A stretch of DNA of 202 nucleotides from Escherichia coli (GCF_003334385.1 NZ_QOWN01000231.1); one strand, 5' to 3'; shown: positions 1 to 202, counted from the stretch's first letter. The notes: generated from the sequence alone by a model not told the origin. Numbers and translations are program-made.

Positions 1-119
1 TTACAGAAAAAATACCGCTCACCGCCCTGTACCGTCAGGTCGATTTCCCAGAGCACCACCCGCGGTGACTGCTCTGACTTAACCGACTCGTTCAGACTTT
101 CTTCGTGAATATCCTGCAT
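1..119 (-). CDS. L: Phage tail tip / minor tail protein L (lambda gpL family), 5' partial: start codon plus first 39 codons, gene continues beyond window position 1
   Basis: Minus-strand translation from the ATG (read from 119 down to 117) gives MQDIHEESLNESVKSEQSPRVVLWEIDLTVQGGERYFFC with no stop down to position 3; positions 2-1 are the first two bases (AA) of codon 40. This closely resembles the N-terminus of lambda L as I recall it (MQDI...EQS..VVLWEIDLT..GGERYFFCN). It is the first ATG after an in-frame stop (TGA, plus 135-137), with an AGGTGG Shine-Dalgarno 7 nt upstream. All three plus-strand frames have stops inside this interval (106-108, 80-82, 66-68). Confidence 0.85.
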   Translation of the reverse strand, partial: MQDIHEESLNESVKSEQSPRVVLWEIDLTVQGGERYFFC

Positions 120-202
120 CAGTTCACCACCTGCTCAATCGTACAACTGAAATCACTGTACCTGGCGTTATCTGTGACGCTCCACTCCCGGCACACCACC
201 CT
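119..202 (-). CDS. M: Phage minor tail protein M (lambda gpM family), 3' partial: last 27 codons plus TGA stop at 119-121; gene begins beyond window position 202
   Basis: The minus-strand frame ending at TGA (plus 119-121) is open to the window edge and translates as RVVCREWSVTDNARYSDFSCTIEQVVN*. The ...EQVVN* ending and the Cys/Trp-containing stretch before it resemble the lambda M C-terminus as I recall it (...KVTCAKWSSRVSMLRVEFSAEFEQVVN*). Its position immediately upstream of L, with a TGATG stop/start overlap, matches the lambda M-L arrangement. Confidence 0.8.
   Translation of the reverse strand, partial: RVVCREWSVTDNARYSDFSCTIEQVVN
127..132 (-). promoter_or_regulatory. Shine-Dalgarno (AGGTGG on minus strand) for gene L, embedded in the last codons of M
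   Basis: Plus strand 127-132 is ccacct, which is AGGTGG on the minus strand, followed by a 7-nt spacer (TGAACTG) before the L ATG. This is a good match to the anti-SD complement at typical spacing, consistent with translational coupling to M. Confidence 0.55.

Follow-up and report, generated by a model that had tools for sequence, protein, structure and literature searches.

Three GGTGGTG heptamers at the tail gene M/L junction of a lambdoid prophage: very probably Val-Val codon pairs, the middle copy also a probable Shine-Dalgarno sequence of gene L

The heptamer GGTGGTG occurs three times on the minus strand of a 202-nt stretch of Escherichia coli DNA (the window, positions 1 to 202). We consider it very probable that the three copies are three Val-Val pairs encoded at the junction of the tail genes M and L, that the middle copy is in addition the probable Shine-Dalgarno (SD) sequence of L, and that two octamers resembling Chi are inactive by-products. 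Each copy is formed where GTG, the locally dominant Val codon, is used twice after a codon ending in G, and the copies at 54-60 and 194-200 would have no role beyond coding. The evidence for this reading comprises the coordinates and frames of the copies, codon statistics, conservation, the predicted pairing with the anti-SD sequence and the occurrence of the octamers in lambda, which is free of Chi.

The window carries the M/L tail-gene junction of a lambdoid prophage in reverse complement, with the minus strand as the coding strand. Its match to E. coli 2013C-3033 (NZ_CP027323.1, 2012020-2012221) is 100%; matches at 90-99% were obtained to about 1,880 further E. coli records, as well as to 150 from phages, most of them Stx-converting. 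By its sequence, the source element is a relative of lambda and not lambda itself: the sequence-only reading had spoken of tail genes and of wild-type lambda, of which the tail genes stood, and the element was specified as a lambdoid prophage, the DNA identity with lambda 13346-13547 being 81% over the window. The 3' end of gene M (minor tail, gpM homologue) occupies 119-202 on the minus strand with its last 27 codons and a TGA stop at 121-119. This gene is the RefSeq CDS 'phage tail protein' (L001 19743-20084), located between the tape-measure gene (L001 16508-19750) and L; its product shares 45% identity with lambda gpM over 110 aa (E=1e-32), which together with this position agrees with the gpM type, and a search of the NCBIfam models with M gave no match. 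The M translation in the window, ...RVVCREWSVTDNARYSDFSCTIEQVVN, includes RVVCREWS and ends with EQVVN. The 5' end of gene L (minor tail, gpL homologue) occupies 1-119 on the minus strand, with the ATG at 119-117. L is the RefSeq CDS 'phage minor tail protein L' (L001 20084-20782) and belongs to the TIGR01600 phage_tail_L equivalog, scoring 362.1 bits against a cut-off of 70.75 over profile positions 1-224 of 224; it is 77% identical to lambda L, and its translation in the window is MQDIHEESLNESVKSEQSPRVVLWEIDLTVQGGERYFFC (MQDI...SPRVVLWEIDL). The M stop and the L start share one base in TGATG, the end of M and the start of L both being L001 20084.

The window is ordinary protein-coding DNA, and the M/L junction is already well known from lambda. 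Both elements have the same gene order, the same 1-nt stop/start overlap TGATG and an identical 25-nt block, CAGGTGGTGAACTGATGCAGGATAT, and in both M ends with EQVVN and L begins with MQDI...VVLWEIDL. In contrast, lambda has Val-Thr in place of the first Val-Val, C and not G before the Val-Val of L, and ACAGGTGG in place of GCAGGTGG. As a result of these differences, the homologous positions of lambda have a single one of the heptamers and lack both one-mismatch octamers.

On the plus strand, CACCACC was found exactly three times in the whole window, at 54-60, 125-131 and 194-200, and on the minus strand every copy reads G-GTG-GTG and specifies Val-Val in the annotated frame of M or L; the positions and the in-frame Val-Val coding given by the sequence-only reading were both borne out. 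The copy at 194-200 encodes the Val-Val of Arg-Val-Val-Cys in M (RVVCREWS) and is coding only. The copy at 125-131 encodes that of Glu-Gln-Val-Val-Asn-stop at the C-terminus of M (EQVVN) and is also the probable SD sequence of L, as judged from its predicted anti-SD pairing and its conservation. The copy at 54-60 encodes Val21-Val22 within Pro-Arg-Val-Val-Leu of L (PRVVLWEIDL) and is coding only.

How unusual such a cluster appears depends on the null model. In dinucleotide shuffles of the window (n=200), 0.06 heptamers were expected against the three observed, and 0 of 200 shuffles reached three; this null is misleading because the window is coding DNA. When the M and L proteins were fixed and their codons resampled synonymously according to phage codon usage (20,000 trials), the mean was about 0.8 copies with P(>=3) = 0.019. 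Nucleotide-shuffle nulls therefore greatly overstate the significance (0.06 against about 0.8 expected), although three copies at p about 0.02 under the codon-aware null still count as a point against the codon reading. Some 7-mer is present at least three times in 26 of 397 (6.5%) real half-overlapping 202-nt windows of the same 40 kb prophage region. Among 329 kb sampled on both strands, which hold 128 occurrences of GGTGGTG, only this 202-nt window contains three; a Poisson scan gave p roughly 0.05-0.1 for such a cluster at this sample size, or about one per E. coli genome. The heptamer cluster is mildly dense and unremarkable at the scale of a genome-wide scan. M and L jointly carry five GGTGGTG copies in 1 kb, each with a preceding G, which, like the uniqueness of the cluster in the 329 kb, weighs against the codon reading. 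The density is mainly due to protein composition, namely the three Val-Val pairs: the window has three per 67 codons against an average of about 6 per 1,000. Two of the three Val-Val contexts, EQVVN and VVLWEIDL, are conserved in lambda.

The codon choice within these pairs was examined in the structural module of the prophage, defined as terS to J (5,440 codons), and in a host sample of 180 kb of chromosome (51,363 codons). GTG accounts for 68% of Val codons in the module and for 39% in the host sample. Of 36 Val-Val pairs in the module, 24 are GTG-GTG, 12 of which follow a codon ending in G, and all 12 sense-strand GGTGGTG of the module are in the xxG-GTG-GTG phase. Among the Val-Val pairs of the host, 70 of 294 are GTG-GTG (24%, against 15% under independence), and the share in phages is 63-67%. 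The string G-GTG-GTG was observed 28 times in the host against 13.5 expected from independent codon choice, 5 times against 2.7 in the lambda late genes, and 12 times against 6.8 in the prophage structural genes. Since this excess of about 2-fold is common to host, lambda and prophage, it represents a general codon-pair effect and not a local one. The description of GTG as an E. coli 'consensus codon', together with non-random codon pairing, fits the excess (bioRxiv 10.1101/2021.07.08.451572). The sequence-only reading had explained the repetition by GTG-GTG codon usage plus the SD sequence, and had proposed a comparison with the expectation from host codon usage. GTG-GTG usage as the cause was upheld, whereas the heptamer frequency proved to be about 2-fold above that expected from independent codons; all tests, including the phase of the copies, their loss by synonymous change and the retention of the SD copy, agreed with the explanation as a whole. 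The lesson is that, in E. coli and its phages, GTG as the dominant Val codon and codon-pair bias commonly give rise to GGTGGTG and to octamers one mismatch from Chi.

Conservation was analysed in 80 viral contigs with an L protein at least 96% identical, representing 40 distinct window variants. The L copy (54-60) is intact in 10 of the 80, the other 70 having the synonymous GGTGGTA, and the lambda position reads CGTGGTG. The M copy (194-200) is likewise intact in 10 of 80; GGTGGTA is present in 13 and GGTTGTG in 2, while in 44 the site encodes the lambda-type Lys-Val-Thr or Lys-Val-Ile (AAGGTGAC/TC), and lambda itself has AAGGTGACC. The middle copy (125-131) is intact in 69 of 80 and identical in lambda and ev017, lying within the perfectly conserved 25-nt block that spans the junction. 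The two flanking copies, each lost in 70 of the 80 relatives, do not show the conservation of a functional repeated motif of the iteron type, and their retention in only 10 of 80, with mostly synonymous change, indicates no selection on the motif itself.

The middle copy is most likely the SD sequence of L, a role in vivo that the following predictions point to. Between the 20 nt upstream of the L ATG and the 3' end of 16S rRNA, a duplex of -12.1 kcal/mol was predicted, one of the strongest for the 16 structural-gene starts examined (range -0.3 to -13.1), and the pairing of the middle copy stops 5 nt before the ATG, within the 4-10 nt spacing of an SD sequence. Combined with the overlap TGATG, this gives the arrangement usual in translational coupling. 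Because the start overlaps the stop and the middle copy pairs with 16S rRNA, ribosomes terminating on M may re-initiate on L, or new ribosomes may be recruited there. Divergent homologues, chosen from the spread of tblastn matches separately from the 80 close relatives, lack the heptamer and yet retain an SD-like string 5-10 nt before the L start: phi467 has GAGGT, Erwinia phage Ehr49 AGGTG, Serratia phage Ulliraptor GGGAGGT and a Mannheimia phage TAGGTGA, and the host's second prophage, whose M and L do not overlap, has TAGGAG. As judged from these alignments, the conserved feature is the ribosome-binding function and not GGTGGTG. As in SD-led coupling of phage late operons, the upstream gene contains within its 3' end the purine-rich AGGUGGUGA, complementary to the anti-SD sequence; the particulars of M/L, predicted here, are a core of AGGUG/GGUGA rather than GGAGG, and there is otherwise nothing unusual.

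Several observations were made on the surroundings of this junction among the relatives. A mosaic breakpoint is located just upstream of the L ribosome-binding site, at window about 132-140 (L001 about 20063-20070). Among the near-identical-L loci (n=80, L005-L084), about 26 have the M 3' end of the window and about 44 the lambda-type M 3' end, and the two types differ by roughly 40% in the last 70 nt. Identity returns in both groups at GCAGGTGGTGAACTGATG, the bases just 5' of it being TTGA in one and TTTAA in the other. In 11 of the 80 (L049 1-600, L057, L063, L083 and others), the 3' end of a porin-like gene (...VGMTYQF), and not M, is found upstream of L; two terminator-like hairpins follow the porin-like end, one of them AGGGGCGCATTGCGCCCCT and provided with a T-run, and next comes ATGGGTGGATGTTT-ATG. 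The L gene of those 11 loci has the SD-like string GGGTGGA. From their sequence, these porin-like/L joins resemble either the remnants of a deletion or a different joining of modules.

Functions for the internal copies at the RNA level have also to be considered, and both that we weighed appear very improbable. The copy at 54-60 could be kept as the 3' arm of a hairpin in L mRNA (window 77-49, minus strand; L codons 15-26) with a regulatory effect on translation or on mRNA stability. This hairpin, predicted with 13 bp and -17.3 kcal/mol, has z = -3.7 against shuffles and is also present in the minimum-free-energy fold of the entire window. The region was, however, chosen post hoc, the fold of the entire window is not better than that of shuffles (z = -1.4), and by our estimate chance alone gives about 0.5 inverted repeats of 7 bp within 40 nt per 202 nt. 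No compensatory changes were detected in six homologues, with a positive covariation term; in the majority variant, GGTGGTA, a C-G pair of the hairpin is lost without compensation, and four pairs of the outer stem are broken in the host's second prophage. A search of the window against Rfam gave no RNA family at E<=1. Equally slim is the chance that the three SD-like GGUGGUG were selected as a set for ribosome pausing or recruitment, tuning M/L stoichiometry or co-translational folding. All three heptamer contexts are among the better anti-SD binders of M and L (-11.2 kcal/mol for the M copy and -11.8 for the SD copy, against a mean of -4.0), and their spacing is near-regular, 69 and 71 nt. 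Against selection as a set, each internal copy is missing from 70 of the 80 relatives, and from lambda, through a synonymous G>A change or the replacement of a residue, and L contains stronger anti-SD binders without the heptamer, such as CAGGGCGGTGAG at -12.5. The idea of pausing by SD-like motifs is itself contested, reportedly by Mohammad et al. in 2016.

A few further candidates were set aside. Similar coding, RVV-L-W-E against RVV-C-R-E-W, explains the 16-nt imperfect direct repeat 46-61/186-201 (81%), which is not conserved because lambda-type M genes lack the copy in M. The H. influenzae/Dickeya-type GGTGGTGG was ruled out by eye, the heptamers being followed by C, A and T, and inspection by eye found no KOPS (GGGNAGGG) in the window.

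The scan of the window for Chi (GCTGGTGG) detected no exact match on either strand, and only two one-mismatch octamers, both deviating at position 3 with G or A in place of T. GCGGGTGG (63-56, minus strand; 56-63 on the plus strand) is composed of the last base of Pro19, CGG of Arg20, GTG of Val21 and the first base of Val22 of L. GCAGGTGG (134-127, minus strand; 127-134 on the plus strand) is xxG-CAG-GTG-G (Glu-Gln-Val-Val) at the end of M. In shuffles (n=200), 0.23 one-mismatch octamers were expected against two observed, and 9 of 200 reached two; the octamers are not independent of the heptamers, since both contain GGTGG from them. Such octamers arise automatically when the codon before Val-Val is CGG (Arg) or CAG (Gln), in the frame in which CTG (Leu) followed by GTG (Val) spells Chi, and xxG-CTG-GTG-G (Leu-Val) is the commonest genomic frame of Chi. 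The octamers share with the E. coli Chi of RecBCD seven of eight bases, the frame of most genomic Chi and the lambda-active orientation, but differ from it at position 3, which is T in Chi, and single changes in Chi abolish activity where tested. The octamers are not conserved, as the homologous positions of lambda have ACAGGTGG for GCAGGTGG (two mismatches) and CAGCGTGG for GCGGGTGG. The hypothesis that the lambda M/L junction was the site of a chi+ mutation (chiA) was rejected, lambda having there ACAGGTGG with its two mismatches.

True Chi sites are present elsewhere in the prophage, an element of about 56.5 kb bounded by the tRNA-Ser/int end and the potB side. It carries 13 exact Chi, 10 on the late-gene sense strand and 3 on the other, all within the early and lysis regions (L002 1-21216; L001 575-582 and 3956-3963), and none from terS to J, the structural module that includes the window. 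The exact-match scan called for by the sequence-only reading thus returned none in the window, in lambda or in the structural module, and 13 elsewhere in the prophage. In its many exact Chi, with a majority in the same orientation, the prophage is like the Chi-rich lambdoid phages of the LLS class (Zheng et al. 2025, PMC12315714), but the density is 1 per 1.9 kb in that class and 1 per 4.3 kb in the prophage, near the E. coli average. The Chi pattern is a property of the prophage element, outside the window.

The octamers themselves are hardly likely to be weak or context-dependent Chi sites that attenuate degradation by RecBCD or stimulate recombination in the tail-gene region. They are located on the late-gene sense strand, in the orientation common to 10 of the 13 exact Chi of the prophage and active in lambda, where it corresponds to the top strand (PMC12315714), and the activity of Chi is modulated several-fold by flanking sequence (PMC5041463). 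Wild-type lambda, however, is functionally Chi-free (PMC5041463; PMC12315714), and yet it carries the identical octamers on the top strand, GCAGGTGG at 16164 and at 38481 (inside cII) and GCGGGTGG at 45025. In the lambda genome, which has no exact Chi, one-mismatch octamers are common, 71 against 39 expected or about one per 0.7 kb, and the occurrence of GCAGGTGG 5 times and GCGGGTGG 4 times in the 56.5 kb prophage is ordinary for such octamers. The single-base variants GCTAGTGG, ACTGGTGG and GTTGGTGG are said to have kept partial activity in the hands of Cheng and Smith in 1984. The chi+C mutation of Sprague et al., from 1978, reportedly turns the GCAGGTGG of cII at 38481 into GCTGGTGG; this conversion would make GCAGGTGG chi-null by definition. 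In the strongest engineered Chi, a single change to GTTGGTGG lowered the hotspot activity from 14.1 to the baseline of 2.1. Mutations that create Chi and those that inactivate it all lie inside the octamer (PMC5041463). Of all 25 one-mismatch variants surveyed in Proteobacteria among 2,063 species, five candidate Chi motifs were retained, neither octamer being among them, and neither shows Chi-like over-representation or strand polarity in any proteobacterium (PMC8022716). A search of the available literature did not turn up hotspot assays of GCAGGTGG or GCGGGTGG themselves. Lastly, RecBCD entering from the lysis-gene end, as in lambda, would meet ten correctly oriented true Chi before the octamers, so that any weak activity of the latter would be irrelevant. 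If active, the octamers would be the first functional variants of Chi at position 3, in a module otherwise avoiding Chi, and the evidence opposes this.

There is similarly little probability that the 2-fold excess of G-GTG-GTG, locally extreme in M/L, reflects selection unrelated to translation, such as for a reservoir of one-step Chi precursors or for a weak modulation of RecBCD. As a reservoir, X-Val-Val sites, of which Leu-Val-Val is Chi, would let lambdoid phages gain or lose Chi as modules are shuffled; for modulation, position-3 variants in favourable flanking contexts would act weakly on RecBCD. We infer instead that the near-Chi octamers are probably inactive by-products of Val-Val coding, their inactivity in the prophage context and the exclusion of residual weak activity being argued indirectly through lambda. 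Of what the sequence-only reading had said on this point, both one-mismatch octamers were recovered as the sole such matches in the window, neither is canonical, and the description of near-Chi sites in tail genes as a minor curiosity, wild-type lambda lacking Chi, agrees with the absence of exact Chi from lambda and the presence of both octamers there in the active orientation.

In the L gene of phi467 (L085 about 351-362, homologous to window 54-65), the sequence is GCG-CTG-GTC-GTG (Ala-Leu-Val-Val), and the GCTGGTCG within it is one synonymous change (GTC to GTG) short of a perfect Chi in the Leu-Val frame, which shows how X-Val-Val sites can become Chi.

Some features of the host assembly were also noted. 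The prophage contains an annotated 813-aa 'exonuclease', and its portal gene (L001 10771-13517) is annotated as frameshifted, owing either to a defective prophage or to an indel error in the assembly. In the host strain, recB (L090 13665-17206; NZ_CP027323.1 3013665-3017206) is annotated as a frameshifted pseudogene, and yeeJ and recB are both flagged as frameshifted in the same assembly. Were the recB frameshift genuine rather than an error of the assembly, the host would be without RecBCD, and Chi would be moot in that strain. The int side of the prophage (L002 21127-29673) adjoins tRNA-Ser, mtfA and yeeJ, and the tail side (L001 35342-40202) adjoins potB, potA, pepT and roxA. On the K-12 map these two flanks are, we assume, about 0.86 Mb apart and roughly symmetric about the terminus, which suggests an inversion between prophages or a hybrid prophage. 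At another location (L092 35182-49806), the genes yaaX, thrCBA, arcA, creDCBA and robA to gpmB are next to a copy of IS621, and this yaaX-gpmB segment is presumably inverted locally relative to the K-12 map.
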